Part shown: positions 6,506 through 20,945 of the stretch, in pieces
Numbering within the stretch: position 1 is the stretch's first letter
Layout: the number at the start of each line of letters is the position of its first letter
NCBI RefSeq assembly: GCF_025210435.1
Contig: NZ_JAOART010000042.1
Span: 1 to 40,000 of the forward strand
Source: Anaeromicrobium sp.
Lineage (GTDB): Bacteria > Bacillota > Clostridia > Peptostreptococcales > Thermotaleaceae
Length of the DNA: 40,000 nt
Reading direction: 5' to 3'
Notes under the pieces: generated by a model
Told to the model about the DNA's origin: nothing
Databases searched by the model: none
What the model saw: the letters and a program-made list of their open reading frames with translations, nothing else
Translations under genes and position numbers: made by a program

Positions 6506-6573
6506 AATACAGGTTATTATGGTATTGTAGAAAAAATAAAAAAACATATGGCCATGTGAGAAAGGAGTTGAAA

Positions 6574-7011: not shown

Positions 7012-8121
7012 ATGGCAGGTATTAAATTAGGATTACCACAAATTATGATTGAATTCAAAACTAAGGGAGTAAGTGCAGTAGTGAGAAGTGCTAGGGGAAT
7101 TGTAGCACTTATATTAAAGGATGATACGGGGGCCTTTGATACAAAGGTATATAAATCCATATCAGAAGTAGAAGATGGACATTGGACTGAAGATAATAGG
7201 GACTATATCTTAAAAACTTTCATGGGAACACCAAGTAAGGTAATAGTAGAAAGAATCCCAACTACAGATACAAACTACAATAAGGGGTTAGAAAGATTAA
7301 AGAATAAAAAATGGAACTATCTAGCTGTACCAGGAATCAAATCGGCAGATGTGACAACGGTGGCTAGCTGGATTGCAGGAGAAAGACAAAACAATAAAAA
7401 GACTTTCAAAGCCGTATTACCTAATTCACCATCAGATAATGAAGGAATTATAAACTTTACAACAGAGGGAATTAAGGTAGATAGAAAAACTATTAAGGAT
7501 GGAAAGTCTGAAACTGTAGAACATACATATTCTGCTAGTGATTATACTTGTAGAATTGCAGGTATATTGGCAGGTATTCCTTTTACTAGAAGTTCTACAT
7601 ACTATGGCCTATCTGAAGTAAAGGCAATTACAGAATCTGCCACACCAAATGTAGATATAGACAAAGGAAAATTAATACTAGTTAATGATGGAACTAAAAT
7701 TAAGATTGGTAGGGGAGTAAACTCATTAACTAGCCTAACTGCTAGTAAAGGAGCAGAATTCCAAAAGATTAAGATTGTAGATGCAGTAGATTTAATGAGA
7801 GATGACATTAGAGATACCTTTGATGGGTCTTATGTGGGTAAGATTATAAACTCTTATGATAATAAGATCCTATTCTTAGCAGCGGTTAATGCATACTTTG
7901 AGCAATTGGAGAAGGATGATGTATTAGATAATTCCTATGACAATAAAGCTCAGATAGATGTGGAGGCTCAAAGAATATATCTAATGCCAAAGGGTGTAGA
8001 TGTGGACAATATGAAAGAACAAGAGATTAAAGAATACAACACAGGAAGTAAAGTATTTGTAAAAGCACAAGTAAAATTCTTAGATGCCATGGAAGATTTA
8101 GCCATGGAAATTAATATGTAG
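7012..8121 (+). CDS. phage tail sheath protein (XkdK-like)
   Basis: 369 aa. The N-terminus MAGIKLGLPQIMIEFKTKG..ARGIVALILKDD is typical of XkdK-type sheaths. Followed by tube and chaperone genes; strong SD. Confidence 0.85.
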   Translation: MAGIKLGLPQIMIEFKTKGVSAVVRSARGIVALILKDDTGAFDTKVYKSISEVEDGHWTEDNRDYILKTFMGTPSKVIVERIPTTDTNYNKGLERLKNKKWNYLAVPGIKSADVTTVASWIAGERQNNKKTFKAVLPNSPSDNEGIINFTTEGIKVDRKTIKDGKSETVEHTYSASDYTCRIAGILAGIPFTRSSTYYGLSEVKAITESATPNVDIDKGKLILVNDGTKIKIGRGVNSLTSLTASKGAEFQKIKIVDAVDLMRDDIRDTFDGSYVGKIINSYDNKILFLAAVNAYFEQLEKDDVLDNSYDNKAQIDVEAQRIYLMPKGVDVDNMKEQEIKEYNTGSKVFVKAQVKFLDAMEDLAMEINM

Positions 8122-8134
8122 GGGGTAGAAGAAT

Positions 8135-8578
8135 ATGGCAAACAAATTAACAGGAAACAGAATTATAAACGGTACTTGGGGGGAAGTTTGGTTAGATGGA
8201 GACAAACTAAGTGAACTAACTGGATTAAATGCCAAGATAGAGCTTAAAAAAGAAGAAGTAAAAATGTGTGGAGTAATGGCCAAGGAAACTAAGATTGTAG
8301 GCTGGGAAGGAAAGGGAACTTTAAAGCTACATAAGGTAAATTCTAGAATGGCCATTAAAATGGGAGATATGATCAAAAAAGGTAAAGATGTTAGATTTAC
8401 AATCATATCAAAACTAGCTGACCCAGACACTATAGATGCTCAATCAGAAAGAATTGTACTTAAAAATGTAAGTTTTGATAATTTAACACTGGCAGACTTT
8501 GAAATGAAGGCCCTAGGAAAGGTAGAGTGCCCATTTACATTTACTGACTATGACTTTGTGGATTTAATCCAAGGATAA
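8135..8578 (+). CDS. phage tail tube protein (XkdM-like)
   Basis: 147 aa with N-terminus NGTWGEVWLDG typical of XkdM/DUF2001 tube proteins. Lies directly after the sheath gene. Confidence 0.8.
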   Translation: MANKLTGNRIINGTWGEVWLDGDKLSELTGLNAKIELKKEEVKMCGVMAKETKIVGWEGKGTLKLHKVNSRMAIKMGDMIKKGKDVRFTIISKLADPDTIDAQSERIVLKNVSFDNLTLADFEMKALGKVECPFTFTDYDFVDLIQG

Positions 8579-8597
8579 TATAGAGGAGGAATTTGAT

Positions 8598-8993
8598 ATG
8601 AACATTATGGATATGCTTCTTCAATTAGATGAAACGAAGCTAGTAAAACCTAAAAAACAAGTAGAAATGAAGAGATTATCAGAAATATTAGGAGACAAGG
8701 TAGTCTTCAATGTGGAGGCCATAACACCTGATAAAATGAGTGAAATTCAGGATATGTCCATAGACTACGAAAAGGAAAGTGTAAATTTAGAAGAGTTACA
8801 GGTCATGACTGTAATAGAAGGTACAAAGGAACCTAACTTCAAATCCAAAGAGCTTATGGACAAGTTTAAGGTATATACTCCAAAGGATCTAGTTAAAAAG
8901 CTTTTATTACCAGGAGAGATAATTAGCCTTTATAACATGATTGGAGAACTTAGTGGATTTAATGGAGAAACAGTTGAAGAAGTAAAAAACTAA
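8598..8993 (+). CDS. tail assembly chaperone (XkdN-like), zero-frame product
   Basis: 131 aa, acidic, located between the tube and tape-measure genes. Ends with the slippery heptamer A_AAA_AAC just before its stop. Confidence 0.75.
   Translation: MNIMDMLLQLDETKLVKPKKQVEMKRLSEILGDKVVFNVEAITPDKMSEIQDMSIDYEKESVNLEELQVMTVIEGTKEPNFKSKELMDKFKVYTPKDLVKKLLLPGEIISLYNMIGELSGFNGETVEEVKN
8984..8990 (+). promoter_or_regulatory. candidate -1 programmed ribosomal frameshift site A_AAA_AAC
   Basis: The heptamer is in the correct X_XXY_YYZ phase in the chaperone frame (codons GTA AAA AAC TAA). The -1 frame is open from here to 9163. Confidence 0.6.
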
Positions 8994-9163
8994 TAGACAC
9001 AGATGGTTTCACATCCATGATGTACTACTTTTGGAAAACCAAAGGTATAAGACCCTCTGTGTTTTATAATATGCCAAAGGGAGAATTGGCAGTTCTTATA
9101 GCCTTCTATGAAAAGGAAATGGATGAGCTAAAGGAAGAACAAAATAGAATGCCAGCCTACTAG
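8990..9163 (+). CDS. -1 frame extension of tail chaperone (gpG/gpGT-like fusion tail)
   Basis: Hand translation of the -1 frame gives LIDTDGFTSMMYYFWKTKGIRPSVFYNMPKGELAVLIAFYEKEMDELKEEQNRMPAY*. It has no SD or start of its own, which fits expression only by frameshifting. Confidence 0.55.
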   Translation, partial: LIDTDGFTSMMYYFWKTKGIRPSVFYNMPKGELAVLIAFYEKEMDELKEEQNRMPAY

Positions 9164-9215
9164 GCTGGCATTTATTTCTCTAGAGGGAAAATTAGAACAG
9201 GAAGAAGGTGATAAT

Positions 9216-10979
9216 ATGATATGCATGACAGAAGATAAATATCTGATTATGACTTATAAATCAACTGATAAAATATTAAAACAAATTAAGAAAAATCAAA
9301 AGCTATTAATAACTATGAAAAACATATGTCTACAGATGAATAACTTTTTTAAATATCCCATTAATTATGAAAATAAGAAAGAGATGAAGGATGATGAAGA
9401 ATCAGTAGGCCTTAAAAAGATGATAGAAGTGAATATCACAAAAGCTGAGCCCATAACATTATGGAAAAATATTATAGCATGGACTGCTTTTGGAAGTAAC
9501 ATAGGGCAAATTACTAAAGATTTTAATACCTTAAAAACCATTAAAAATAGAAATATAATACAAGGAAGAAATACTTATAAGAATGTAAACCTATTTTCTA
9601 GAAATGGGAAAATAGATAAAAAAGTAATGGAACTTTCTTCACGAAGGAATAATTTGAAACTTTTAAGTAAAACAAATAAAGATAGTAAGACAGTAGCTAA
9701 ATTAACTAAACAAATAGATAAACTAGATGAGCAGATAAAAATATTAAAGAACATTAAGTCATATAACTTAGACTCTATGAAAATCTTAAAAAATAATGGA
9801 TTTAAGTTTGGCGCAAAAATAAAGACAATTCTAAAAGACACAGGAAAGAGAATAGCATCCAAGGCAGGTGATTTTAAGAAATTAGTCACATTAAAAGGTA
9901 TTAGTAATGCGAAAACCTTTGCAGGTGCAATGCTAGGACCTGCTGCAATGGCTGTTAATCTGCACACAATGCTTGACGAAGGGGAAAGCTCATTTAAAAG
10001 AACCCTAGCTATGATTGATTTTATAGGAGACTTTACCCTATTAAGTCCTATTACATCAGTATTAAATGTTGTGGGGCCTTTAATGTATGATATGTTAGAT
10101 CTTCAAACTCAAGGTAAAATAGATGAGGTTTTTAAAGCGATTGGAGAGGTACTTAACTATGCATATGAGGCTGTATATGTAGTTATAAAACCTTTGTTTG
10201 ACTCCCTAAAGAGTCTTTTTGGTGTTATCTTTCATATTGTAGGAATATGTGCTAAAAAGTTATTTGGTCTCATGTCTGGACCACTAGCTTGTATTTTTAA
10301 ATGGGTAGGTAAAGGAATGAGATTACTAGTGGATTTATGGTCAATGAGTATAGGAAAAATAATTGAAGACATAACCACAGTAATAGATGTAATATCTTAT
10401 GTTTTAAAACAGGTATATGAGTTTATAGCTAATCCAATGAAATATATCAATTCCATGAAGGAAAACTTTAAAGGATTCATAGGTAAAGGCATTGATGGAG
10501 CAAAGAATTTATTTTCTAATACAATAGAGTACTTAAATCCAATGAAACAGATAAATGATATGGATGGAAAAAATAATATAAAAAGTGAATTAGAAAAATC
10601 ACTTAAACATACTCCTGTATCAGAAACATTAGATAATGCATATGATCTAATGGGGAATAAAACGAAAAAGAAAGTGGATAATTTAACCAATACAGTTAAA
10701 AAGTCTGTAGATGATACAATAACTAAAGTTTTAAATAAAACTAAAGGTATTATGAGAGATATAGAACAAAATTTAAAAGTAAAACCTCTACCACAACCAC
10801 GAAAAATTGAAAAAAGTGTTCCATTATATCATTCAACAGGAAAATCTACATATAACAATAATCAATCTAATTATAATTATAATAATTACAATGTAAGTGT
10901 AGATGTACTTGAAAAAATGGGAGTACAAATAATGGATAAAATTATGCCTGAGGTAAATAAAGCCATGGCAATAACCTAA
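9216..10979 (+). CDS. tail tape measure protein
   Basis: 587 aa in the position after the chaperone. Has coiled/charged ends and a central hydrophobic Gly/Ala-rich segment (GAMLGPAAMAVNLHTML..LLSPITSVLNVVGPLMYDML). No lytic domain is recognisable. Confidence 0.7.
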   Translation: MICMTEDKYLIMTYKSTDKILKQIKKNQKLLITMKNICLQMNNFFKYPINYENKKEMKDDEESVGLKKMIEVNITKAEPITLWKNIIAWTAFGSNIGQITKDFNTLKTIKNRNIIQGRNTYKNVNLFSRNGKIDKKVMELSSRRNNLKLLSKTNKDSKTVAKLTKQIDKLDEQIKILKNIKSYNLDSMKILKNNGFKFGAKIKTILKDTGKRIASKAGDFKKLVTLKGISNAKTFAGAMLGPAAMAVNLHTMLDEGESSFKRTLAMIDFIGDFTLLSPITSVLNVVGPLMYDMLDLQTQGKIDEVFKAIGEVLNYAYEAVYVVIKPLFDSLKSLFGVIFHIVGICAKKLFGLMSGPLACIFKWVGKGMRLLVDLWSMSIGKIIEDITTVIDVISYVLKQVYEFIANPMKYINSMKENFKGFIGKGIDGAKNLFSNTIEYLNPMKQINDMDGKNNIKSELEKSLKHTPVSETLDNAYDLMGNKTKKKVDNLTNTVKKSVDDTITKVLNKTKGIMRDIEQNLKVKPLPQPRKIEKSVPLYHSTGKSTYNNNQSNYNYNNYNVSVDVLEKMGVQIMDKIMPEVNKAMAIT

Positions 10980-10992
10980 AGGAGGATAGGAA

Positions 10993-11415
10993 ATGATAGA
11001 TATACATTTGTCTATAAATAACAGAGAACAAGTAATACAACTTCCAATCCTACCTTCTGAATTTAAAATTAAATCACAACATAAAAATGAGACTTATGAC
11101 ACCATAAGCCAAGGTGAAATAAAATTAATAGGAATGGAAGGATTAAAGAGTATAAGTATAGAATCCTTTTTCCCATCGAAAAAATACAATTTTAATAGGT
11201 CTAATGAATACTATGGTTGGGAATACGTGGAGATCATAGAAAAGTGGAAAGAGAGAAGAGTTCCCATAAGAATAGTCATCTCTAATACTCCAATAAATAT
11301 GGCATGTACCATAGACTCCTTTGAATATGGAATAAAGGATGGAACAAAGGATATATACTATACCTTAGAACTTGGTGAATTTAAATTTATAAACCTCAAC
11401 AAAAAGGAGGTTTAA
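10993..11415 (+). CDS. XkdP-position tail protein (no LysM domain)
   Basis: 140 aa directly after the tape measure, with a strong SD. Synteny matches PBSX xkdP, but no LysM motif is visible. Confidence 0.55.
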   Translation: MIDIHLSINNREQVIQLPILPSEFKIKSQHKNETYDTISQGEIKLIGMEGLKSISIESFFPSKKYNFNRSNEYYGWEYVEIIEKWKERRVPIRIVISNTPINMACTIDSFEYGIKDGTKDIYYTLELGEFKFINLNKKEV

Positions 11416-11419
11416 TTTT

Positions 11420-12388
11420 ATGTACAAAATATTAAACATACTAAACAATGTTCAAACAGATATAACTCCCCTTATAGGGGACTTTTCATGGAGTAGTAAT
11501 ATAGATCAAATAAGTAGAAAGATGGACTTTCAAGTGGCCTTTAATGATGATAGATACTTCCCTCAAAATCCAATAGATATAGGCTCACAGATAATATTAT
11601 CATCAAATGATGAAATATTTAGGGGCATAGTAGTAAGTGAAGAGAGAAAGGGAAGGGGAAGTATATCCTATACGGCCTTTGATTATGGCTTTTATTTAAA
11701 CAAAAGTAATGCCACCTATCAATTTAACAATATATCAGGAAAGGCTGCCATAGAAACCATATTAAAAGATTTTAATATACAAATAGGATCTATAGAAAAC
11801 ATAACCACAGTAGTCAATAAGATATATAGAAATAAAGTGGTAGCAGAAATAATAAAAGATATATTAGATATGGCTAAAAAGGAAACTTCCGTAAAATATT
11901 TTATGGAATTTCATGAGGGGAAAATCTTCATAAAGAAAGAAGAAAATTTCATAATAAAGGGTCAATTTCAATTAGCATCAAATATAGGACCTAATGATAT
12001 AAGTTCTAGTATAGGTAATCCTGTAAGGAAAAGAACTATAGAAGATATGAAAAATGCCGTGTTAATAGTAGAGAATGATAAAATCATATATACCCTAACA
12101 AATAATGAACTAATGAATAAATACGGTAAATTGCAAACTATAGAAGAAGTAAGTAAAAAAGATAAGGTACAGGCTAAAAACATAGCACAAAAGGTATTAA
12201 AGGATTTAGGAAAAATATTTGAAGAAAACTCATTAGAAATCCTAGGGGATGATAGAGTAAGGGCAGGTAGGTTAATAGAAATAGATGAACCTGTTACAGG
12301 TATGAAGGGTACATATAAGATGAAAAATGTAACCCATACTGTAAAAAATAATATTCATAAAATGAACATAGGATTGGGGGTCGTGTGA
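11420..12388 (+). CDS. XkdQ/YqbQ-like baseplate hub protein (gpD-like)
   Basis: 322 aa. Order and size match xkdQ. Strong SD AAGGAGG. Confidence 0.65.
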   Translation: MYKILNILNNVQTDITPLIGDFSWSSNIDQISRKMDFQVAFNDDRYFPQNPIDIGSQIILSSNDEIFRGIVVSEERKGRGSISYTAFDYGFYLNKSNATYQFNNISGKAAIETILKDFNIQIGSIENITTVVNKIYRNKVVAEIIKDILDMAKKETSVKYFMEFHEGKIFIKKEENFIIKGQFQLASNIGPNDISSSIGNPVRKRTIEDMKNAVLIVENDKIIYTLTNNELMNKYGKLQTIEEVSKKDKVQAKNIAQKVLKDLGKIFEENSLEILGDDRVRAGRLIEIDEPVTGMKGTYKMKNVTHTVKNNIHKMNIGLGVV

Positions 12389-12780
12389 TGAATGGTATTG
12401 TAGAATTAGCTAAATTACTAAAGGAGAGGGAAAATAGAGACTATATGGGTCCTCAAGTGGGAAACGTAATAAGTCCACTTCCAGAAATTAAAATAAGATT
12501 AGATGAAAATATAATACTAGATAAAAATCACCTCCTAATCTGTGAACATTTAATAACAAAGGTAGGTAAGTTTAAGTTAAATGGAGCTTCTAATATTGGT
12601 TCTACCACATTAAAAGTAAGTACTAGTCAAAACTATGACATAGTAGATATAAACATAGGTGATGAAAACAAAACCCATATGGAAAATTTCTATGAGCTAA
12701 AGGTAGGAGATAAAGTATTAGTAATCCCAACTACAGATGAACAAACCTATTATGTAGTAGATAAGGTGGTGAGAGTATAA
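12388..12780 (+). CDS. XkdR-like (DUF2577) baseplate spike/plug protein
   Basis: ~130 aa, translationally coupled to the upstream gene (GTGTGATG). Position matches xkdR. An alternative GTG start exists at 12385. Confidence 0.55.
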   Translation: MNGIVELAKLLKERENRDYMGPQVGNVISPLPEIKIRLDENIILDKNHLLICEHLITKVGKFKLNGASNIGSTTLKVSTSQNYDIVDINIGDENKTHMENFYELKVGDKVLVIPTTDEQTYYVVDKVVRV

Positions 12781-13223
12781 TGCTTCCACAAGTTGCACAA
12801 CTAGAAATAAAAGTAGATAAAAATGATGATTTACCTAAGATAGGTAAGTCTTTTTTATTTGACTTTAAAACGGGAGAATTTAAGTTAGCAGATGGAAAAC
12901 CTGTAGAAGTAGAGGGTATAGATGGACTTAAGATCTGGATAGAAAAAATACTTAGAACTGAAAAATATAGATACAAAATCTATGAAAGAGCTGATAAGGA
13001 TGAATATGGAGTAGTATTAGAAGACCTAATCGTAGGAAATAACTTTCCCACATCCTTTGTAGAAGCAGAAATAAAGAGAGAAATATCTCAGGCACTACTT
13101 AGGAATCCTGTTATAGATGCATTAACCAATTGGAAGTTAAGTAGAGAAAGGGAGAGGCTAAACATAAGCTTCAAAGTAAATACAGTCTATGGAGATTCCT
13201 TTAATCAGGAGGTGAACTTATGA
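12780..13223 (+). CDS. XkdS-like (DUF2634, gp25/gpW-like) baseplate wedge protein
   Basis: 147 aa with a TAATG overlap to the previous gene. Has the LPKIGKSFLFDFKTGEF N-terminus typical of XkdS/YqbS. Confidence 0.6.
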   Translation: MLPQVAQLEIKVDKNDDLPKIGKSFLFDFKTGEFKLADGKPVEVEGIDGLKIWIEKILRTEKYRYKIYERADKDEYGVVLEDLIVGNNFPTSFVEAEIKREISQALLRNPVIDALTNWKLSRERERLNISFKVNTVYGDSFNQEVNL

Positions 13224-14299
13224 CAAGTGAACATATAGTTAATAGAATACTAAAAAATATAGAAGGAGATTATGATAAATCAGAGGGTGGCTTTTTATAT
13301 GATCTAGTAAAAGCCGTATCCTTAGAGTTATCTTCCTCCTATGAAAAGCAAGATAGGATATTAGATAATGGATTTGCCCTTACTGCCTCTGATAATAGCC
13401 TAGATAAAAAGGTTGCTGAACAGGGAATCAGAAGAAAAGCCAGTAAACAGGCAACTACTACAGTAGTTTTTCATGGAGAAGAAGGTGCTAAAATCCCTAA
13501 AGGAACTAAAGTATCTACAGATGTGGTAAGCTTCATAACCTTAGAAGAAAAAACTATAGGACAAAATAAAACAATAGAAGTTTCAGTAGAGTGTGAAATA
13601 CCAGGAACTATAGGAAATGTAAAAGCAGGCAGGATAAAACATATTCCAGTGACCATAACAGGAGTAAGTAAAGTGAATAATCCTAATAATGTGGAAAATG
13701 GATATGATGAAGAAGTGGATGAGGAACTAAGACAAAGATACCTACAAAAGGTAAGAACTCCGGGAACCAGTGGCAATAAATATCATTACATAAATTGGGC
13801 CAAAGAAGTACCTGGAGTAAAAGAAGTTCAAGTAGAATCACCAAGCCCTGGCCAAGTCCTAGTAACTATTATAGACACTGACATGAGAGGAACAGGATCT
13901 AAATTAGAAAATGATGATTCAAAACTAACTGTTAATGTAAAAAATCATATAGATGAAAAAAGACCCATAGGAGCCACCGTACAAGTGAATCTAGCAGCAG
14001 AAGTTACTATTAATATAAATGTAAAAATAGTAATAAACACGGGCCTAGATTCTGTAGAAAACATAAAGGCTAACATATTTAAAAATATAGAAAAATATAT
14101 AAAGGATAAAGCCTACTATGAAGGATATGTGAGTAAATCTAAGATAGGAAGTGCCATATTAGACACTTACGGAGTAGTAAACTACTCTAATCTTCTAATC
14201 CCAGGATTAAATGAAGATGAAATGATAGTGATACAACCAAAAACAGTGCCCATACTAGGAGGGATAACCTATGACCAAGTTAAAGAACAATCTTCCTAG
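13220..14299 (+). CDS. baseplate J family protein, copy 1 (XkdT-like)
   Basis: 359 aa. Blocks DKSEGGFLYD, ENGYDEEVDEELRQRY and TSGNKYHYINWAKEVPGV are characteristic of Baseplate_J proteins. Confidence 0.8.
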   Translation: MTSEHIVNRILKNIEGDYDKSEGGFLYDLVKAVSLELSSSYEKQDRILDNGFALTASDNSLDKKVAEQGIRRKASKQATTTVVFHGEEGAKIPKGTKVSTDVVSFITLEEKTIGQNKTIEVSVECEIPGTIGNVKAGRIKHIPVTITGVSKVNNPNNVENGYDEEVDEELRQRYLQKVRTPGTSGNKYHYINWAKEVPGVKEVQVESPSPGQVLVTIIDTDMRGTGSKLENDDSKLTVNVKNHIDEKRPIGATVQVNLAAEVTININVKIVINTGLDSVENIKANIFKNIEKYIKDKAYYEGYVSKSKIGSAILDTYGVVNYSNLLIPGLNEDEMIVIQPKTVPILGGITYDQVKEQSS

Positions 14300-14834
14300 T
14301 TATTATAGAAAAAGTGATTTAATAAACTCTTTAGCCAAGGCTATCCAAAAGGAACTAGATGAACTAGACAAAAGTATTATTAATAGGGGAAATCAATTTT
14401 ATGTAGATTCTAGTGATACTTCCTTAGACAGATATGAAAAGGATTTAAAAATAAATATAGATATAAATAAGGATTTAAATGAAAGAAGAAGTGTTATAAA
14501 GTCAAAATTGAGAGGTATTGGAACTGTCAATGTAGATATGATTAAAAATGTAGCTGAGAGCTACGATAAAGGAACCATAGAAGTTAGGGAAGATAACCCT
14601 AACTTAACTTTCATAGTAAAGTTTATAGATACTCTAGGTATCCCACTAAATATATGGGATCTAAAAAGAGCTATAGAAGAAATAAAACCAGCTCATTTGA
14701 GAGTTAAATATGAATTAAAGTATCTTACTGTAGGTGAGGTACAAAAGATGACCTTAGGACAAATACAAAACAGAAAGCTAGGAGATTTTTCTCCGTTTAA
14801 GCCAATACTAGGAGGTGGTATTATTGGCAAATAA
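14271..14834 (+). CDS. XkdU/YmfQ-like (DUF2313) tail protein, copy 1
   Basis: 187 aa, overlaps the J gene. Has blocks RRSVIKSKLRGIG and IKPAHL. Position matches xkdU. Confidence 0.7.
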   Translation: MTKLKNNLPSYYRKSDLINSLAKAIQKELDELDKSIINRGNQFYVDSSDTSLDRYEKDLKINIDINKDLNERRSVIKSKLRGIGTVNVDMIKNVAESYDKGTIEVREDNPNLTFIVKFIDTLGIPLNIWDLKRAIEEIKPAHLRVKYELKYLTVGEVQKMTLGQIQNRKLGDFSPFKPILGGGIIGK

Positions 14835-16260
14835 TACGAAAAATTTAGGATTATACAAGAAAGATCCAGTTAGTGATAGTAATGATTATTTTGATGTAAA
14901 GACTATGCTTAATGATAACTGGGATAAGGTAGATGAGAAGTGTAAGGATACAGATGATAGGTTAACTGGTATAGAGAATGAAGTTGTGACGCATAAGGCT
15001 GAAACTGGGGATATAATTAAAAATATTACAGGAAAAAATGACTGGAAAACAAATCCAAGAACAACTTTGGAAAATGCAGTAAAGCGTGATGGCGATACCC
15101 TGTCGGGAAACTTAGAAATTAAGAAGAGTGATAATCAAGATTCCCACATTGGACTGTACGAAAGTAATGGTCTACATGGTGTTACTATAAAATATGAAGC
15201 TTCTTCTGAAGGGACTAGTGATGGTATTCATATTTTAGGTAAAGATAATGGTGTAGAAAGAGAAGGTATTTACTTTCCTAGAATACCAACTGTTGAGGGA
15301 CTAACATACATGGGTCATAAAGTTTGGCATCAAGGTAATGATGGTTCTGGAAGTTCCTTAGATGCAGATTGCATAGATGGAATTCAAGGGGTTGAGCTTG
15401 CAAGAAGGGTTGACTTCGACGGACAAATTACTACTAGCTACCGAAAGGTTGTTATTGCTCTTTGTAGAGTAGACAACGATTATATTAATAGAAATTCGTA
15501 TTCGTTGGGGACTCTTTATTTTCATAGAACAAATGGATTGTATGGTTCAATTTCAATAGATGTTTTAGCAGAAAAACGTTATAATACTGAACAAATGCAC
15601 ATTACCTTAACTGTTAAAGGTTCCCGTCCTAATATAGTAAAACCTTGCACTTTCAAGTATAATGGGATTACTTATGGTGGAATCGAATACTATCCTCAGC
15701 CTGCAGAAACTCGTAAAGCATTTTTTGTAGGTGAAACTAGTGGGGATATATTTATCAAAGAATTTTATAACACTAATGATGATTCAGTGTTGAACTCAGA
15801 AATCTATAATTCTTTAAATTACGACAATGCAATTCTTGTAAACTATCTTAACTTTTGTGAAGGGAAAGTTTGGACTGAATTAAATAGTTTTCCAATAGTA
15901 GAGCAAGGTTCAAATTCCAATGGCACTTATGTTAAGTTTGCAGATGGAACTTTGATTTGCTATACATCCATTCATTGGACGACTTGGGGTTCATACAGTA
16001 CTATTTTTCCTAGTGGGATTCTACAAAGACGTACAAAAACACATTCTAAAAGTTTTCCGGCAACTTTCAGTAATACTCCTCACATAATAACTAGCCTGAA
16101 AAATCTTGTGAAAAGTGATGGGTATAATGGAGAGCTATCTTTTTCAGGTTGTACCATATTTAGCTCCACTAAAACTAGCCTGGAGGCACAAGCTTGGTGT
16201 ATTTCTGATGATATCGTAGAGGGATATCAAGATATAATTGCAATTGGGAGGTGGAAATAG
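14824..16260 (+). CDS. tail fibre / receptor-binding protein, copy 1
   Basis: TTG at 14824 lies 5 nt after GGAGGTGG (tracked GTG at 14815). N-terminus MANNTKNLGLYKKDP..NDNWDKVDEK and the GSGSSLDADCIDGIQG fibre motif are present. The C-terminal ~250 aa are unique. Confidence 0.7.
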   Translation: MANNTKNLGLYKKDPVSDSNDYFDVKTMLNDNWDKVDEKCKDTDDRLTGIENEVVTHKAETGDIIKNITGKNDWKTNPRTTLENAVKRDGDTLSGNLEIKKSDNQDSHIGLYESNGLHGVTIKYEASSEGTSDGIHILGKDNGVEREGIYFPRIPTVEGLTYMGHKVWHQGNDGSGSSLDADCIDGIQGVELARRVDFDGQITTSYRKVVIALCRVDNDYINRNSYSLGTLYFHRTNGLYGSISIDVLAEKRYNTEQMHITLTVKGSRPNIVKPCTFKYNGITYGGIEYYPQPAETRKAFFVGETSGDIFIKEFYNTNDDSVLNSEIYNSLNYDNAILVNYLNFCEGKVWTELNSFPIVEQGSNSNGTYVKFADGTLICYTSIHWTTWGSYSTIFPSGILQRRTKTHSKSFPATFSNTPHIITSLKNLVKSDGYNGELSFSGCTIFSSTKTSLEAQAWCISDDIVEGYQDIIAIGRWK

Positions 16261-16607
16261 TGCGGGTAAAACTTACTCCCCAAAGGAATGACAACATTCT
16301 AGAATATCAATATAAGACTGACAAAGTAGTAGTCATCTATCATAAAAGAGAAGTTAGGACTGTACTTAAAGAAATAGAAGAAAGTCCTGTACAACTAGAA
16401 GAACTACAAACCATAGAAACTTTTACAGATACTTTCGATTTTTTGGAACTACCTGATGGTATTGTAACAGATATAGAAACAAACCTGCCTGTAAACCCAA
16501 TAGTTTCAGCAGAAAGAAAAGATGGATTGTTATCTATTGTTTTACTTAACTTTATAGGTGCAGATGCTACAGTGGAAGATAGGTTTCCAATATGGAAGGA
16601 GGTGTAG
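16260..16607 (+). CDS. XkdW-position protein (possible fibre chaperone)
   Basis: GTG at 16260 lies 5 nt after GGAGGTGG. ~115 aa directly after fibre 1. Function is from synteny only. Confidence 0.5.
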   Translation: MRVKLTPQRNDNILEYQYKTDKVVVIYHKREVRTVLKEIEESPVQLEELQTIETFTDTFDFLELPDGIVTDIETNLPVNPIVSAERKDGLLSIVLLNFIGADATVEDRFPIWKEV

Positions 16608-16610
16608 GGC

Positions 16611-16754
16611 ATGGCAAAAATCACATGGAAAACGGACGAAGATATAAAAGATGAGAAGTTATTAGAAAAAGTAATTCCGACTTGTGAAGAAGTGAATGAA
16701 GCTAAAATAGAAATACAAGTATTAAATTTATTAGAGGAGGTTGGAGTGATATGA
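16611..16754 (+). CDS. small protein, XkdX-position (47 aa), not in ORF track
   Basis: ATG lies 4-6 nt after GGAAGGAGGTG. Reads MAKITWKTDEDIKDEKLLEKVIPTCEEVNEAKIEIQVLNLLEEVGVI. Its stop overlaps the next start (ATATGA). Confidence 0.5.
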   Translation: MAKITWKTDEDIKDEKLLEKVIPTCEEVNEAKIEIQVLNLLEEVGVI

Positions 16755-16930
16755 CAAAGGTACAAAAAAGATTAATAAATGCGTATGCAATATTGTTATT
16801 AGCCAATAGAATAGAATTAGAGAATATTCCTGCTATAGGAATGACTCTAGAAAATGGGACAAAGTCTACTATTAGACAAGAAACAGAAGTGAGAAAAGCA
16901 GAAATTGAAATAGAAAGATTAACACAATAG
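16751..16930 (+). CDS. small hypothetical protein (59 aa), not in ORF track
   Basis: ATGA-coupled to the previous small ORF, with GAGGAGG upstream. Reads MTKVQKRLINAYAILLLANRIELENIPAIGMTLENGTKSTIRQETEVRKAEIEIERLTQ. Confidence 0.45.
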   Translation: MTKVQKRLINAYAILLLANRIELENIPAIGMTLENGTKSTIRQETEVRKAEIEIERLTQ

Positions 16931-16989
16931 GTAAATATTGCGACATGAATAATTTTTTTAATCTGTTTATGAAAGGGAAGGAGGAAGTT

Positions 16990-18075
16990 ATGAACAATAT
17001 AGTAAAAAGAATGATTGATAGTGTGAAAAATACCTTTGACAAATCAGAAGGTAGTTTTTTTTATGACTTTTTTAAGCCTGTTGCCATGGAAATAGAAGAA
17101 CTAGACAACAAAATAGAAGTTGTAAAATCAAAACTAAGCATAGAAAATCTCTCTGGTGATGAACTAGAGGAGCGAGTGTATGAAAAAACAGGAATAAAAA
17201 GAAAACAAGCTACCAAAGCTACTGGTCAAGTGATTACAAAAGGTAAAGCTGGTACTACTATAAACGAGGGATATATGGTAGCTAGTGAAAATGTGAACTT
17301 TATTATTAAAGAAACAAAAGAAATAGACCAAAATGGTCAAGTGGTTATTTTAGTAGAATGTGAGGAAGCTGGAACTATAGGAAATGTACCAGAGAATAGT
17401 ATAACAAAGTTCCCTATACAATTAACAGATATAAACTCCGTTACTAACCCTAAAACCTTTGAAAATGGATATAGGGCAGAAAATGATGAAGAACTACTAG
17501 AAAGATACTATGAATATATAAAAACTCCAGCTACTAGTGGCAATAAGTATCATTACATGAAGTGGGCGAAGGAAATTGATGGAGTAGGTGATGCAAAAGT
17601 ATTTCCTTTAGCTAATGGAGACAATACAGTAAAAGTATTAATAATAGGTAATGATAGAGAACCAGCCAGTGATAAATTGGTGAATAGTGTTCAAGACCAT
17701 ATAGATCCATATACAGGTGTAGATGAAAAAGGAAAAAAGATTGGCAATGGTGCTGGAAATGGAAAAGCTCCTATAGGAGCTTTTTGTACTGTGAAAAGTG
17801 TTGAAGGTGTGAAGATTAATATATCATTAAATCCACAAAAAGAAAACAATGTAGATCATGAAGAAATGTTAAAGGATATAAAGGCTAATGTAAGAACTTA
17901 TTTTAGAGAAATAGCTTTTAATAATAATAAAGTTAGTTATAACAAAATAGCCAGTATCATACTAGATTCAAAGGGCATAGTAGACTTTACAAATCTAATA
18001 GTGAATAATTCCAAAGGAAATATTCTATTAAAAGAGGAGCAAGTTCCTGTGTTAGGGGATGTTACTATTGATTAA
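16990..18075 (+). CDS. baseplate J family protein, copy 2 (diverged paralogue)
   Basis: ATG at 16990 follows GGAAGGAGGAAGTT (tracked start 16945 lacks an SD). Blocks DKSEGSFFYD, ENGYRAENDEELLERYY and TSGNKYHYMKWAKEIDGV parallel copy 1. Confidence 0.8.
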   Translation: MNNIVKRMIDSVKNTFDKSEGSFFYDFFKPVAMEIEELDNKIEVVKSKLSIENLSGDELEERVYEKTGIKRKQATKATGQVITKGKAGTTINEGYMVASENVNFIIKETKEIDQNGQVVILVECEEAGTIGNVPENSITKFPIQLTDINSVTNPKTFENGYRAENDEELLERYYEYIKTPATSGNKYHYMKWAKEIDGVGDAKVFPLANGDNTVKVLIIGNDREPASDKLVNSVQDHIDPYTGVDEKGKKIGNGAGNGKAPIGAFCTVKSVEGVKINISLNPQKENNVDHEEMLKDIKANVRTYFREIAFNNNKVSYNKIASIILDSKGIVDFTNLIVNNSKGNILLKEEQVPVLGDVTID

Positions 18076-18622
18076 AACAAAATTAATAAATAGAATGCCT
18101 ACCTATGAAAGAAAATCACAGTTAGTTAATGAAATATTTACTCCCGTATCCATAGAACTAGAAAATGAAGAAATAAAAATAGATGATTTAAAAGATCAAC
18201 TATGGATAGATAGAGCTACTTGGGCATTAGATATATATGAAAAGGAATTAGGATTAAATTCTCAAGATGAAAACATTGAAAATAGAAGAAGTATAATAAA
18301 ATCCAAATATAGGGGAGTAGGTAAGGTAGGTAGTGATCTAATTAAAAAAGTATGTGATTCCTATACTAATGGAGATGTGGAAGTAACCTTTGATGGAAAG
18401 ATAAAAATAAAGTTTACAAGTGTATATGGTATCCCATCTAATATGGATAGTGTTAAGCAGGCTATAGATCATATAAAACCTGCTCATTTAGATTTTGATT
18501 TTATATACATCTATACTACGTGGGACGAATTAGATAAATACAATAATAGTTGGCAACAGTGGGACGATCTAAACCTTACATGGGATGAATTTGAGAAATA
18601 TAGGGGGGATAAACATGCCTAG
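18059..18622 (+). CDS. XkdU/YmfQ-like (DUF2313) tail protein, copy 2
   Basis: Blocks RRSIIKSKYRGVG and IKPAHL parallel copy 1. The start is uncertain: ATG 18059, or TTG 18068 giving IKTKLINRMPTYERKS, which aligns with MTKLKNNLPSYYRKS of copy 1. Confidence 0.7.
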   Translation: MLLLIKTKLINRMPTYERKSQLVNEIFTPVSIELENEEIKIDDLKDQLWIDRATWALDIYEKELGLNSQDENIENRRSIIKSKYRGVGKVGSDLIKKVCDSYTNGDVEVTFDGKIKIKFTSVYGIPSNMDSVKQAIDHIKPAHLDFDFIYIYTTWDELDKYNNSWQQWDDLNLTWDEFEKYRGDKHA

Positions 18623-19931
18623 TAAAGATAAAACTAAACATCTAAAATTAAACAAATGGGTAGGAAATGAATATGTTAAGAGGCAAGACTTTGTAGATGA
18701 CAATGAGAAGATAGATGAAGCTATTAAAGACTTAGATAATTCCAAAGTAGATAAAGTGTCCGGTAAAGGTCTGAGTACCAATGATTACACAAATGGAGAA
18801 AAAAGTAAGCTATCAGGAATTGAAAATGGGGCAAACAGATACACTCATCCATCAAACCATCCAGCAAGTATGATTACAGGTCTACATAATGTGGCTAAAA
18901 GTGGAGACTATAGGCAACTTAAAAACAAGCCCACATCATTACCTGCAAATGGAGGCAATGCTGATAAAGTAGATGGACTACATGCTAGTAGTTTTTTGAG
19001 AAGTGATGCAGATGATACTATAAATGGGAATTTAACACTTGCTAAAGGAAAAAGAATTAAATTACATGATAGTAATGCTATAGGATCTGCTATAGGTATG
19101 GATGGAGAGAACTTTGTTATTTGGGAAGAAGAAGATGGAGATAGGAAAATGCTTGAAATAAGAGATGATGAGCATGCATATGTTTATGGTAATAAAGTTT
19201 GGAGTAGTAGGAATGATGGACATGGTAGCGGATTGGATGCAGATACGGTAGATGGTATTCATAGTAACAATTTACAAAAGATTGTAAATCAAACATTTGA
19301 AGTAGGAGGGGATAAAGATACATTCTATCCAGTTATAATATCAAAATTTGATACATCTGAGATGAAGGATTTAATCATTTGTAGAAAATATCATGAACCA
19401 GCTCCTGATACGTGGAATACAGATACTCATAGAGGTGGGTTGAGAATGGATTTTACAAATGTTGCATTAGGAGGATGGGGCGGTCATTATGTAACTTATG
19501 ATGTAAGAATATCTCAAATATATTCAAATCAAGTTGCTGATTATGGCGTATTATCTCCAGATACTAGTAAATTTGTTGTATGGTTAAGAGGTGGTGGAGC
19601 AAGGTACCATCTGGTTCAAAGGAGTTGTTTTAATATATCACAGGTTAAGGTTTATCTTTCTACCTATACGTACAACCCATCATCTGAAAAAGAGTCAGAA
19701 TACAATTGTGTATTGAAGCCCAAATCAATTAATGAAATAAATCCTATACTTCAGCCTAAAGGAAGTGTTCATATTAAACATGGACAGTATCAACGGGGTG
19801 TTTATGTTGCAAATGAAAGTAGGCCAGGAGCTTCTTCTTATAAAATTTGGGATGAAAGGACATTAAAGATAGAAGAAGGCAAATTAAAGTATTATGCAAA
19901 TGGAAAATGGGTGGAAGTTAATACTGTATGA
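18615..19931 (+). CDS. tail fibre / receptor-binding protein, copy 2
   Basis: ATG at 18615 follows AGGGGGGAT. Fibre repeat motifs GKGLSTNDYTNGEKSKLSGIENGAN, GGNADKVDGLHASSFLRSD and GHGSGLDADTVDGIHS are present. The C-terminal domain is unrelated to fibre 1. Confidence 0.7.
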   Translation: MPSKDKTKHLKLNKWVGNEYVKRQDFVDDNEKIDEAIKDLDNSKVDKVSGKGLSTNDYTNGEKSKLSGIENGANRYTHPSNHPASMITGLHNVAKSGDYRQLKNKPTSLPANGGNADKVDGLHASSFLRSDADDTINGNLTLAKGKRIKLHDSNAIGSAIGMDGENFVIWEEEDGDRKMLEIRDDEHAYVYGNKVWSSRNDGHGSGLDADTVDGIHSNNLQKIVNQTFEVGGDKDTFYPVIISKFDTSEMKDLIICRKYHEPAPDTWNTDTHRGGLRMDFTNVALGGWGGHYVTYDVRISQIYSNQVADYGVLSPDTSKFVVWLRGGGARYHLVQRSCFNISQVKVYLSTYTYNPSSEKESEYNCVLKPKSINEINPILQPKGSVHIKHGQYQRGVYVANESRPGASSYKIWDERTLKIEEGKLKYYANGKWVEVNTV

Positions 19932-19968: not shown

Positions 19969-20364
19969 ATGTATAAAGTAGTTAAGAATATAAAATTAAG
20001 TAAAAATTTTTCTATTTCCGAATTCGTATGCAAAGAGGGAAAAAAAGAAGTGCTATGCGATTACAAACTAATAGAAAAACTACAAAAACTAAGAGATAAA
20101 ATAAATAAACCTATAACCATAAATAGTGGGTATAGATCAAAAACCTACAATAAAAAAGTAGGAGGAAGCCCTAAGAGTCAGCATTTATTAGGTAAAGCAG
20201 CAGATATAGTTACAAAAGGGATAGATAAAGAGAAAATAAAAGAAATAGCCATAGAACTAGGATTCACAGGAATAGGGCTATATGACATATTTGTCCACCT
20301 AGATGTACGCAACAATCCCCATCCTAGAGGTTATTCATTTTGGGATAATAGAACTAAGAGATAA
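19969..20364 (+). CDS. peptidase M15A-type cell-wall hydrolase (endolysin)
   Basis: 131 aa. Zn-ligand pattern SGYRS..SQH..GKAADI..FVHLDVR is typical of the Peptidase_M15_3/YcbK-like family. No wall-binding domain. Confidence 0.7.
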   Translation: MYKVVKNIKLSKNFSISEFVCKEGKKEVLCDYKLIEKLQKLRDKINKPITINSGYRSKTYNKKVGGSPKSQHLLGKAADIVTKGIDKEKIKEIAIELGFTGIGLYDIFVHLDVRNNPHPRGYSFWDNRTKR

Positions 20365-20377
20365 AGCAGGTGATAAA

Positions 20378-20584
20378 TTGACAATAGATATAATACAAAA
20401 GTTAGCAACGCAATATGGCCTATTTGTAGCATTAGTTGTATATGTTATATGGGATAGTAGGCTGAGGGAAGTTAAGTATATTAGGATAATAGATGATCTG
20501 TCTAGGAAATTTGGTGTTATTACAGATATAAAGAAGGAAGTTTACTATATTAAAAGGAGTATTGAAAAAATAAATAGGGGGTAG
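20378..20584 (+). CDS. BhlA/UviB-family holin-like peptide
   Basis: TTG at 20378 lies 5 nt after AGGTGA (tracked 20303 start overlaps the lysin). 68 aa with one N-terminal TM segment (QYGLFVALVVYVIWDSRLRE) and a charged tail, as in BhlA/UviB. Confidence 0.55.
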   Translation: MTIDIIQKLATQYGLFVALVVYVIWDSRLREVKYIRIIDDLSRKFGVITDIKKEVYYIKRSIEKINRG

Positions 20585-20587
20585 AAG

Positions 20588-20929
20588 ATGATTGGTTTTA
20601 TGAAGAATCATTACCTGGATTTAATCACTGTAATAGGGACTATTGCAGTTTTATTATTTTTATACAAAAAAGAGAAAATAGAATTAGTAAAAAAAATCGT
20701 ATTATCCCTAGTAATTCAAGCAGAAAAGGCATTTGGTAGGGGTATGGGGGACATAAAATATTTTTATGTGGTGGAAAAGACCTATGAGGTACTGCCTACT
20801 GTGGTAAAGGTACTTATTACTAAAAAAGATTTGGACAACTTAATAGAAGAAGGAGTTACCTATATGAAATCCTATCTATCTAAAGAGGGTAGGCATATGG
20901 ATGACATACTAAATGAAGCGGAGGCCTAG
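20588..20929 (+). CDS. holin, LL-H-family-like
   Basis: 113 aa with an N-terminal TM segment (LITVIGTIAVLLFLY), then LVIQAEKAFGRGMGDIKYFYV resembling the LL-H holin core. It is the last gene of the tail block. Confidence 0.55.
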   Translation: MIGFMKNHYLDLITVIGTIAVLLFLYKKEKIELVKKIVLSLVIQAEKAFGRGMGDIKYFYVVEKTYEVLPTVVKVLITKKDLDNLIEEGVTYMKSYLSKEGRHMDDILNEAEA

Positions 20930-20945
20930 GCCTCCGCTTTTTTTA
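20916..20945. terminator. bidirectional terminator shared by convergent holin and lon-like genes
   Basis: Perfect 20-nt palindrome GCGGAGGCCTAGGCCTCCGC (20918-20937) is followed by T7. It overlaps both stop codons. Confidence 0.75.

Follow-up and report, generated by a model that had tools for sequence, protein, structure and literature searches.

Among the described contractile tails closest to the locus reported here are those of PBSX and diffocin. PBSX and the skin element of Bacillus subtilis contain the XkdS-XkdT-XkdU-XkdV-XkdW-XkdX families in that order; PBSX makes heads and has one XkdT/XkdU/XkdV set. Diffocin of Clostridioides difficile (CD1359-CD1376; 8V3W and related structures) is a headless contractile bacteriocin from the Clostridia in which a single triplex set is accompanied by one fibre/RBP pair. 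[quoted passage not shown]

Kosakonicin, xenorhabdicin and carotovoricin, and the Gin and Cin systems of Mu and P1, allow one kind of tail to recognize two or more receptors. In these systems only the fibre/chaperone genes, behind one baseplate, are multiplied or inverted, and an invertase is often present. A further solution is seen in Pseudomonas chlororaphis 30-84, whose dual R-tailocin locus comprises two complete, unrelated tailocins (Dorosky et al., 2018, as outlined in PMC12090994).

Gene content of the locus

The locus lies within a window of 40 kb (the whole stretch of DNA analysed, 40,000 nucleotides) from an Anaeromicrobium MAG, the host being an anaerobic marine Clostridia bacterium. 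Judged from its gene content, the segment 5999-20940 is a headless, diffocin/PBSX-like R-type contractile tailocin (Table 1). Every contractile tail component was matched between 6502 and 19931 (Pfam, PHROG, PDB), giving a complete set from sheath through fibre, and the 40-kb window contains no genes for a capsid, portal, terminase or replication. The location is chromosomal. The cluster is flanked by an integrase/DUF6262/DUF4365 island and by host genes (LonB-like protease, MatE, hydrogenase), host genes also lying directly upstream of the loci of two relatives (L011 and L082), and GC content is even along the whole cluster.

The tail terminator, sheath, tube, tape measure and XkdP/Q/R/S each occur in one copy within the window, from which a second set of sheath, tube and hub, as in a tandem tailocin of the P. 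chlororaphis type, is absent. XkdS, the trunk protein on which whichever wedge is used would dock, is followed by two modules of a J, a U and a fibre gene, and the lysis cassette, with the locus's own release genes, serves both. The first-pass annotation had described two whole wedge-plus-fibre modules in a single tail cluster. The present analysis upholds this, with one trunk, two complete sets in one operon and no switch.

Table 1. Features of the tailocin locus and their positions in the window
Feature	Position	Strand	Basis
Late transcriptional activator, phage-type; opens the cluster	5999..6505	+	PHROG phrog_36 transcriptional regulator, E 8.6e-20
Trunk and hub, single set	6502..12780	+	Pfam matches
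Tail terminator	6502-7011	+	Pfam
Sheath	7012-8121	+	Pfam
Tube	8135-8578	+	Pfam
XkdN-like chaperone	8598-8993	+	Pfam
Tape measure	9216-10979	+	Pfam
XkdP-like	10993-11415	+	Pfam
Hub XkdQ/YqbQ, 322 aa	11420-12388	+	Pfam
Spike DUF2577/XkdR	12385-12780	+	Pfam
Sheath initiator (gp25/XkdS-like), one copy	12780..13223	+	Pfam Sheath_initiator, E 4.9e-30
J, type I wedge protein (Tri2/baseplate J)	13220..14299	+	Pfam Baseplate_J, E 1.2e-57
U, type I Tri1/Mu gp48-like wedge protein	14271..14834	+	Pfam Phage_Mu_Gp48, E 2.3e-25
Fibre 1, 478 aa, TTG start	14824..16260	+	PHROG tail fibre phrog_2712 at aa 358-478
Hinge motif, fibre 1 (GHKVWHQGNDGSGSSLDADCIDGI)	15313..15386	+	Repeat search; closes the fibre 1/fibre 2 BLASTP alignment
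Three small genes (115, 47, 59 aa), XkdW/XkdX position behind fibre 1	16260..16930	+	
J', type II wedge protein (Tri2/baseplate J)	16990..18075	+	Pfam Baseplate_J, E 1.3e-67
U', type II Tri1-like wedge protein	18059..18622	+	Pfam Phage_Mu_Gp48, E 2.7e-25
Fibre 2, 438 aa	18615..19931	+	PHROG tail-fibre families
Hinge motif, fibre 2 (partner of the fibre 1 motif)	19188-19261		
Common lysis cassette	19969..20940		
M15 peptidase	19969-20364	+	Pfam
BhlA-type holin	20303-20584	+	Pfam
Holin-like gene	20588-20929	+	Pfam
Operon terminator	20915-20940	+	Terminator scan

The sheath-to-fibre gene order is that of diffocin, J and J' resembling CD1371 (Tri2), U and U' resembling CD1372 (Tri1), and XkdS being the sheath-initiator counterpart of CD1370 by its Pfam Sheath_initiator family. 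In contrast to the single triplex set and fibre/RBP pair of diffocin, two full triplex-plus-fibre sets are present here and three in relatives, and the hub is without the long hydrolase extension described for CD1368. The order of the Xkd families, including the small genes behind the fibre, is as in PBSX; unlike PBSX, the locus has no head genes and its XkdT-XkdU-XkdV unit is repeated. As in P. chlororaphis 30-84, one locus with one common lysis cassette would provide two killing specificities. In that system, however, sheath, tube and baseplate are specific to each tailocin, whereas here the trunk is common and multiplication is confined to the wedge triplex and fibre. Unlike the fibres of the multi-fibre and invertible systems, each fibre here has its own J and U, and invertase and inverted repeats are absent.

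Comparison of the two cassettes

All six ORFs (J, U, fibre 1, J', U' and fibre 2) are intact and lie where they were first annotated. J is matched over its full length (aa 2-356) by diffocin TRI-2 CD1371 (8v3w_E; E 1.6e-40), and U by TRI-1 CD1372 (E 6e-16). J' matches phiCD508 gp65 (9g8s_C; E 6.5e-44) and CD1371 (8v3w_E; E 1.7e-41), and U' matches CD1372 (E 5.4e-16). The J' start is backed by a GGAGG Shine-Dalgarno sequence and its 361-aa form corresponds to NCBI protein P0001, while the TTG start of fibre 1 agrees with an independent gene call on L001. The C-terminal tail is of an 'alpha' type in U (..KYLTVGEVQKMTLGQIQNRKLGDFSPFKPI..) and of a Trp-rich 'beta' type in U' (..TWDELDKYNNSWQQWDDLNLTWDEFEKY..). 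Fibre 1 is built from an 'alpha' N-terminus (NTKNLGLYKKDP..YFDVKTMLNDNWD), a shaft, the hinge motif and an orphan distal domain, and fibre 2 from a 'beta' N-terminus (MPSKDKTKHLKLNKWVGNEYVKRQDFVDDNEKID), a repeat shaft, the hinge motif and an orphan distal domain. Homologue searches gave only partial matches for fibre 1, none of them covering aa 340-478, and nothing for aa 335-438 of fibre 2.

The motif blocks previously listed as common to J/J', U/U' and the two fibres are all present in the translations, and the strong divergence reported alongside them is borne out by BLASTP: J and J' are 36% identical over their full length (E 6e-67), U and U' 40% across 158 aa (E 4e-34), and the fibres 28% over ~220 N-terminal residues (E 1e-9). 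Beyond their shared G.GS.LDAD..DGI motif BLASTP detects no similarity between the fibres, whose C-terminal domains had been called unrelated. The sole DNA-level repeat between the modules found by the repeat search is the hinge motif (74 nt, 70% identity).

The three small genes behind fibre 1 are tightly packed, with a Shine-Dalgarno sequence before each, and gave no match in Pfam and PHROG searches. Homologues of the 115- and 59-aa proteins sit behind fibre 2 in Marinisporobacter (L010), and the gene at the equivalent position in Crassaminicella (L081) is Pfam XkdX; a role in fibre assembly is possible.

Both modules are on the + strand, and U and U' each overlap the 3' end of their own J. 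Throughout 12780-19931 the genes overlap or are at most 59 nt apart, and each is preceded by a Shine-Dalgarno sequence, that of U' being weaker than the others. The + strand scan found no terminator-like site between the modules, as first reported, and the only strong + strand terminator downstream of the baseplate genes is that behind the lysis cassette. A promoter scan between the modules gave nothing above chance and fewer sites than shuffled sequence, and no regulator or riboswitch-like element lies there.

An invertible host-range switch (Gin/Cin/Min-type, or as in carotovoricin) was considered and rejected. No ORF of 5999-20929 contains a resolvase/invertase domain, the only recombinase being a tyrosine integrase at 251-1258, ~12 kb upstream of the cluster, and the repeat search found no meaningful inverted repeats flanking either module, the longest pairs (16-25 nt) being at chance level or part of the terminator hairpin. 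The absence of both elements had been noted before, and the two modules share one orientation. An assembly artefact was likewise rejected, the same layout being present in complete chromosomes of Wukongibacter (CP138202.1, CP138200.1) and Crassaminicella profunda (CP082326.1).

Cassette lineages in related tailocins

Tandem duplication, the origin first proposed for the two modules, is not supported. J' shares 57% identity with the J proteins of Wukongibacter and Maledivibacter as against 36% with the neighbouring J. In the trees of both proteins, J and U, the modules fall into separate deep clades, each of which includes positional orthologues from other genera. On these trees J/U and J'/U' represent two deep cassette lineages, types I and II, and did not arise by tandem duplication at this locus; relatives carry a third lineage, type III. 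J groups with the post-XkdS J of L010, L035, L042 and L006, and the J' clade takes in both the J of the extra modules in L004-L011 and L035 and that of L009 and L082, where it is the only one.

Nor is the locus singular. In the close trunk family a trunk usually has two or three cassettes, a state found in at least seven named genera, and co-resident cassettes always differ in type. Types I and II are combined in the window, Marinisporobacter (L010, L035), Crassaminicella (L081) and L083, types I and III in L042, and types I, III and II, as three cassettes, in Wukongibacter (L004, L006) and L084. In Anaerovirgula (L008) type II lies upstream of the trunk and type I behind XkdS. The upstream type II module recurs in Anaerosolibacter (L011), there directly behind a regulator-like ORF likened by its position to the activator that opens the present cluster; the post-XkdS J of L011, of which only the first ~60 aa are inside the locus, is therefore given no type. 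Clostridium (L075, L080) combines a II-like and a type III cassette on a different trunk family. The multi-cassette loci are related by descent and therefore represent few independent events, not many. Among sequenced phage genomes a duplicated J or U is almost never found and the layout is essentially absent. The first-pass annotation had raised the possibility that the layout is common and already characterized in relatives; it is indeed common in related tailocin loci, but no published description or characterization was found in the literature searched.

Single-cassette loci are also present. In Inediibacterium (L082) a type II cassette alone lies directly behind XkdS, with chromosomal flanks as in Crassaminicella (L081). 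The trunks of these two loci are 71-89% identical in tube, chaperone, XkdP, XkdQ and XkdR, 59% in XkdS and 50% in the tape measure. Type II is thus sufficient by itself, being the sole wedge on an orthologous trunk. Anaerophilus (L009) similarly has a type II cassette only, and in several other loci, among them L023 and L043, the one J found belongs to the type I clade, the trunks there being less similar (tube 45-48% identical).

First and extra cassettes are under purifying selection in three species pairs, with dN/dS of 0.09-0.31 (0.13-0.31 for the extra cassettes alone) close to that of trunk genes, dS being near saturation in two of the three pairs. J and U have congruent trees (Mantel r 0.60, 0/999 permutations), a tighter coupling than that of XkdS with J (0.39). 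How similar two U proteins are in their last 40 aa predicts how similar the proteins encoded next are in their first 50 aa (Mantel r 0.64, 0/999), the comparable values being 0.22 (U core) and 0.06 (J); physical linkage could partly explain this covariation in place of a binding code, because the segments are adjacent in DNA. Cassettes that share a locus have unrelated U tails and unrelated fibre N-termini.

Proposed assembly on a common trunk

The favoured explanation, to which a probability of about 0.6 is given, is that alternative, orthogonal wedge-plus-fibre sets are assembled on one common trunk. Each cassette would encode both triplex proteins (two J/Tri2 and one U/Tri1 per triplex, six triplexes forming the wedge ring) and a fibre hanging from U. 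Both cassettes would be co-transcribed and translated together with the trunk, J would assemble with U and J' with U' via co-evolving N-terminal core bundles, and the distinct C-terminal tail of each U would recruit only its own fibre N-terminus through alpha and beta 'docking codes'. Triplexes of either kind would be accepted by the one sheath initiator and hub, and the particles released would carry fibre 1, fibre 2 or, should J and J' be able to make the lateral contact of the ring, a mixture. Such particles would be expected to be bactericidal, with distinct killing spectra. The earlier suggestion that both sets can arm one trunk fits the comparative data, because on orthologous trunks elsewhere each cassette type serves as the only wedge, purifying selection acts on both cassettes and every U tail is matched to the N-terminus of its own fibre; that both sets are incorporated is a prediction from sequence.

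An obligate hetero-baseplate, in which every particle needs both sets, is unlikely. J and J' might then be the two Tri2 conformers (Tri2A, Tri2B), or J'/U' an outer second tier with a second fibre ring, like the long and short fibres of T4. The two sets do share an operon and are conserved together, and complex baseplates elsewhere derive from duplicated wedge proteins, as with gp6/gp7 of T4. However, type II stands alone on the orthologous trunks of L082 and L009, as does a type I-clade J in L023 and L043, though on the less similar trunks noted above; some loci have three cassettes, and cassette position relative to the trunk shifts in L008 and L011. Each J also comes with its own U, which would be needless for subfunctionalized Tri2 conformers.

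It is quite unlikely that the cassettes are regulated alternatives, one being translated or assembled at a time under an unseen post-transcriptional control acting as a non-genetic switch. The 59-nt gap and independent strong Shine-Dalgarno sequence ahead of J' would suit such a control, and the distal operon position could reduce the dosage of module 2, but the region between the modules contains no regulator, riboswitch-like element, terminator or above-chance promoter.

That module 2 is a disused relic, the end of a second tailocin or prophage left without its trunk, is very unlikely given its intact ORFs with Shine-Dalgarno sequences, the dN/dS of the extra cassettes, the uniform GC content over the cluster and the fact that at least seven genera have kept type II as an additional cassette across a divergence at which trunk proteins are only 50-80% identical. 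Clostridiaceae bacterium M8S5 (L068/L072) does have two complete tail clusters in tandem, between which a deletion would yield the present layout, and a J N-terminal fragment remains at the cassette junction of L006 (6211-6393); trunk deletion may well be the origin of the layout, but it does not describe its present state. Most improbable is a module 2 that arms a trunk encoded elsewhere in the genome: several genomes do have further related tail clusters on separate contigs (for example Marinisporobacter, L010 and L043; Anaerosolibacter, L011, L051 and L060), but these clusters already own J and U, module 2 is bracketed within the operon by fibre 1 and the common lysis genes, the type II module of L011 lies between the regulator-like ORF and the trunk, and type II is the only wedge of this trunk in L082 and L009.

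If alternative sets are assembled on the common trunk, two receptor specificities would be served by one trunk and one lysis cassette with no DNA switch. The tailocins of this family, with two to three sets in related genera, would then probably represent one machine armed for several targets.

Gene organization and comparison of the two modules

The tailocin genes of the window form a compact cluster, all on the plus strand, in DNA of low GC content (about 30%). Since capsid, portal and terminase genes are absent from the window and the flanks are an integrase island and host genes, the cluster is, by gene content, a headless contractile tail cluster, namely an R-type tailocin of the diffocin/PBSX kind. 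From the sheath initiator (XkdS) to fibre 2 every gene is preceded by a Shine-Dalgarno sequence, and neighbouring genes overlap or sit at most 59 nt apart. J' starts at 16990 behind a GGAGG rather than at an upstream ATG (16945). The three small proteins encoded after fibre 1 gave nothing usable in Pfam and PHROG.

Features of the tailocin cluster and its flanks
Feature	Position	Strand	Remark
Tyrosine integrase	251-1258	+	left flank
DUF6262 gene	1242-1631	+	left flank
Two large genes	to 5030	-	left flank
Palindrome	5447-5494		
Phage-type late activator	5999-6505	+	PHROG phrog_36; start of cluster (5999-20940)
Tail terminator, sheath, tube, XkdN-like chaperone, tape measure	after activator	+	
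Hairpin	9147-9173		
XkdP-like protein, XkdQ/YqbQ hub, DUF2577 spike, gp25-like sheath initiator	after tape measure	+	
J	13220-14299	+	module 1, after sheath initiator
U	14271-14834	+	module 1
Fibre 1	14824-16260	+	module 1
Three small genes	after fibre 1	+	
J'	16990-18075	+	module 2
U'	18059-18622	+	module 2
Fibre 2	18615-19931	+	module 2
M15 peptidase, two holin-like genes	after fibre 2	+	
Strong terminator	20915-20940		end of cluster
LonB-like protease	20926-23298	-	right flank
MatE transporter, hydrogenase genes	after protease		right flank

Several further elements accompany the cluster. A 48-nt AT-rich near-perfect palindrome (ACAATGATAGCAACATATTGTATATATATAATATGTTGCTATCATTGT) lies in ~970 nt of non-coding DNA 5' of the gene for the late activator and may act as an operator, or as a bidirectional terminator, in the control of tailocin induction. 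The XkdN-like chaperone and tape-measure genes are separated by 222 nt containing a strong 12-bp GC-rich hairpin (GAATGCCAGCC..GGCTGGCATTT). It falls where a small out-of-frame ORF (about 9017-9163) ends; this ORF resembles the frameshift extension usual for the chaperone. The hairpin could weaken transcription, keeping the baseplate genes below sheath and tube, or have a role in frameshifting. The terminator closing the cluster is a perfect, bidirectional hairpin common to the convergent tailocin operon and LonB-like protease gene, and the stop codon of a holin-like gene falls within its stem. In the left flank one reverse-strand gene encodes a protein of 596 aa that matches DUF4365 weakly, the other a protein of 398 aa without a match. 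This stretch (251-5030) has the look of an integrative or defence island separate from the tailocin that it adjoins, and its integrase is not an invertase of the fibre modules.

All six open reading frames of the two modules are intact, as the first-pass annotation had described them. J and J' share 36% identity over their full length (E 6e-67), and U and U' 40% (E 4e-34). The two fibres are 28% identical across the first ~220 residues (E 1e-9), and the earlier view that their C-terminal domains are unrelated holds, as there is no similarity past the shared GxGSxLDADxxDGI motif. This motif is also the sole DNA-level repeat between the modules (74 nt, 70% identity, 15313-15386 and 19188-19261). 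Both fibres are mosaic: homologue searches gave partial, mosaic matches, with partial relatives for the N-termini and shafts. The distal 100-140 residues of each found no homologue among 5.8 billion proteins at the sensitivity used, and Pfam and PHROG gave nothing usable for either. Fast-evolving receptor-binding tips would be expected to show such orphan distal domains, and the two predicted tips differ from each other. The window was likewise confirmed to hold no invertase, no flanking inverted repeats and no terminator between the modules; with the first two absent, an invertible host-range switch was rejected. An assembly chimera was also rejected, since complete genomes show the same layout. 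One locus (L001), 100% identical to the window, possibly comes from the same sample and was not counted as independent support.

Wedge proteins and proposed fibre docking

Along their whole length J and J' match Tri2 proteins of defined structure (diffocin CD1371, 8v3w; phiCD508 gp65, 9g8s), and U and U' match the Tri1 protein CD1372. In diffocin, two Tri2 and one Tri1 form a triplex via an N-terminal core bundle, which is bound by the sheath initiator; six triplexes, joined by Tri2 dimerisation domains, make up the wedge ring, and the C-terminus of Tri1, unresolved in the structure, links to the fibre (PMC10996793). Given these roles, the duplicated unit is the entire outer baseplate together with its fibre. 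Every part onto which the triplex docks is single-copy.

The U proteins divide into discrete types by their last ~35-40 residues, each type paired with a characteristic N-terminus of the protein that follows. In module 1 an 'alpha' U tail (..FKYL..VQK.T..IQ.R.L.DFSPF.PI) precedes a fibre starting NT.NL.LYKKDP...YFD.KTMLNDNWD, and in module 2 a Trp-rich 'beta' tail (W.E.D.YN..W.QWD.LNL.WDEFE) precedes MPSK.KT..L.LN.W.GNEY.KR.DFV.DN.KID. Across 57 U/fibre pairs, similarity of the fibre N-terminus is predicted by that of the U tail (Mantel r 0.64, 0/999 permutations), compared with 0.22 for the U core and 0.06 for J, although tail and fibre start are adjacent in the DNA and linkage may contribute to this value. 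Co-resident cassettes have unrelated U tails and unrelated fibre N-termini. The pairing fits the structural role of the Tri1 C-terminus. It would also explain the need of a second fibre for a second U, as each triplex holds one Tri1, and because of the shared core bundle J must travel with U.

Cassette lineages and their distribution

The modules had been taken for a tandem duplication, an origin that the comparison does not bear out. J' is 57% identical to J of Wukongibacter and Maledivibacter, against 36% to its neighbour J. The phylogeny suggested at that stage as a check was built by neighbour joining from 77 loci, fetched from a collection of species-representative genomes and annotated by phmmer with the window's proteins. 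It places the two modules in different J clades, as does the U tree, and recent duplication is thereby rejected. Type I comprises the window's J and the J directly after XkdS in Marinisporobacter (L010, L035), a Clostridia MAG (L042) and Wukongibacter (L006). Type II comprises J', the extra J of both Marinisporobacter loci, of Wukongibacter (L004, L006), Anaerovirgula (L008) and Anaerosolibacter (L011), and the sole J of Anaerophilus (L009). Type III contains the middle Wukongibacter cassette together with the second ones of L042 and of two Clostridium loci (L075, L080). The U tree shows the same clades. J and U distances correlate more tightly (Mantel r 0.60, reached by 0/999 permutations) than those of XkdS and J (0.39), indicating that J and U are inherited as a unit loosely tied to the trunk, the single-copy tail genes up to XkdS. 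Cassettes co-resident on one trunk were always of different types among the loci compared.

The cassettes also differ in internal layout. In types I and II, unlike type III, U overlaps the end of J; type III cassettes often carry 1-3 extra genes between the two (L006 7754-8323; 7845-8414 in L084, a I+III+II locus; L042 11036-12851), encoding a ~190-aa protein in Wukongibacter-like loci and proteins of 140, 340 and 115 aa in L042. The type II cassettes of Crassaminicella (L081 11612-13789) and Marinisporobacter (L035 11579-12733) lack a long fibre after U' and have instead a glucosaminidase-domain protein followed by short proteins, one of them collagen-like in L081. What hangs on the type II wedge is thus in some loci a fibre and in others a peptidoglycan hydrolase with a mini-fibre. 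Just 5' of the type III J in Wukongibacter L006, a 61-aa fragment matching the J N-terminus (6211-6393) is probably a recombination scar at a cassette junction. Finally, in Clostridiaceae bacterium M8S5 (L068/L072; CP118523.1, about 1.129-1.166 Mb) two tail clusters of this family, both complete, stand in tandem; the terminator, sheath and tube of the second start about 7 kb past the first U. A locus with one trunk and two cassettes could plausibly arise by deletion between clusters of this kind.

When only loci with a tube protein of 75% or higher identity to that of the window are considered, those with several cassettes are the majority. Further look-ups gave I+II in the complete genome of Crassaminicella profunda and in a 258-kb metagenome contig, I+III+II in a 218-kb contig, and II only in Inediibacterium. 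In Anaerovirgula and Anaerosolibacter the type II cassette stands upstream of the trunk, in the latter directly after a regulator-like ORF that occupies the activator position and is closely preceded by host ABC-transporter genes, a placement which implies that the cassette belongs to the operon wherever it stands. Among the best 79 IMG/VR loci more than one J occurs in only five, all of this tailocin family. In sequenced phage genomes J' matched 763 places in 762 records, J 304 in 303 and U' 63 in 63, so that wedge duplication is essentially absent from known phages. The J' and J searches each imply a single record with two J-like places, outside the matches listed, which may represent a rare phage in which a wedge gene is duplicated.

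Proposed use of two cassettes by one trunk

The favoured reading, with a probability of roughly 0.6 from these comparisons, is that two kinds of triplex, each with its own fibre, are armed on one shared trunk. One operon would supply a single trunk and both kinds of triplex; each kind would recruit its own fibre, and both would be able to dock on the one sheath initiator and hub. The outcome would be a particle population of two specificities, or mosaic particles, released by one lysis cassette. Extended to the family in Peptostreptococcales and Clostridium, the proposal has a little better than an even chance: two to three orthogonal J/U cassettes with private U-tail/fibre-N codes would compete for one sheath initiator and hub, giving a mixed or mosaic arsenal of several specificities.

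In three species pairs (Marinisporobacter, Wukongibacter, Clostridium) dN/dS is 0.09-0.31 for J and U of first and extra cassettes and 0.04-0.19 for trunk genes, with dS near saturation in two of the three and unsaturated in the Clostridium pair. Crassaminicella (L081) and Inediibacterium (L082) have common chromosomal flanks (acyltransferase 62%, Na/Ca exchanger 63% identity). Their shared neighbourhood (acyltransferase, Na/Ca exchanger, DUF5711; L081 14300-17550, L082 15133-16982) indicates long vertical residence, not recent prophage acquisition. The trunks are 59-89% identical (tube, chaperone, XkdP, XkdQ and XkdR 71-89%; XkdS 59%), with the tape measure at 50%. L082 has one J/U, placed directly after XkdS; it is 68%/63% identical to the type II cassette of L081 and 43%/40% to type I, and hence orthologous to the former. 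A type II wedge alone thus serves this trunk.

This bears on two of the alternatives. An obligate hetero-baseplate, containing both wedge types, is unlikely though the foremost of them; L082, with type II alone on an orthologous trunk, is evidence against a type II wedge that forms no more than an outer tier. Use of the cassettes as regulated alternatives is slightly less probable again. That module 2 is a relic is improbable, L082 speaking against this as well, and that it serves another trunk is the most doubtful suggestion.

By membership the locus belongs to the contractile tailocins, with wedge proteins of the Tri2 and Tri1 families, and it is neither an invertible switch, a tandem of complete tailocins nor the product of recent duplication. 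According to a 2024 review, a genome normally has one tailocin and a tailocin (particle type) one fibre allele, the exceptions being two complete tailocins in one locus of P. chlororaphis, several fibres in Kosakonia and an invertible fibre in Erwinia (PMC12090994). The locus differs from the first in having several wedge-plus-fibre cassettes on one trunk, and from the other two in that the wedge triplex is multiplied along with the fibre. No description of several J/U sets per trunk was found in the literature searched (tailocins, including multi-fibre and Bacillota ones, XkdT/XkdU, the diffocin triplex, baseplate duplication), which agrees with the initial impression of an undescribed arrangement; it is not singular, however, as by genome comparison it recurs across genera.

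Multiplying triplex and fibre together is a different answer to narrow specificity, and implies that these Gram-positive machines exchange host range in units of J-U-fibre instead of fibre-chaperone. To specialists the architecture is surprising, and cultivable relatives allow it to be tested directly; its support is of a comparative-genomic kind throughout. If true, the proposal for the family would mean a combinatorial way of arming that has not been described in tailocins, phages or eCIS, and would offer natural orthogonal adaptor pairs for engineering multivalent tailocins. If both sets enter particles, the family would be a system for testing how competing wedges are selected by a six-fold baseplate, and its orthogonal Tri1-tail/fibre-N pairs could be used to engineer diffocin-like antibacterials that have two or three specificities. 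Such use of both sets would also explain how slow-growing sediment anaerobes could widen their killing range without maintaining several trunks.
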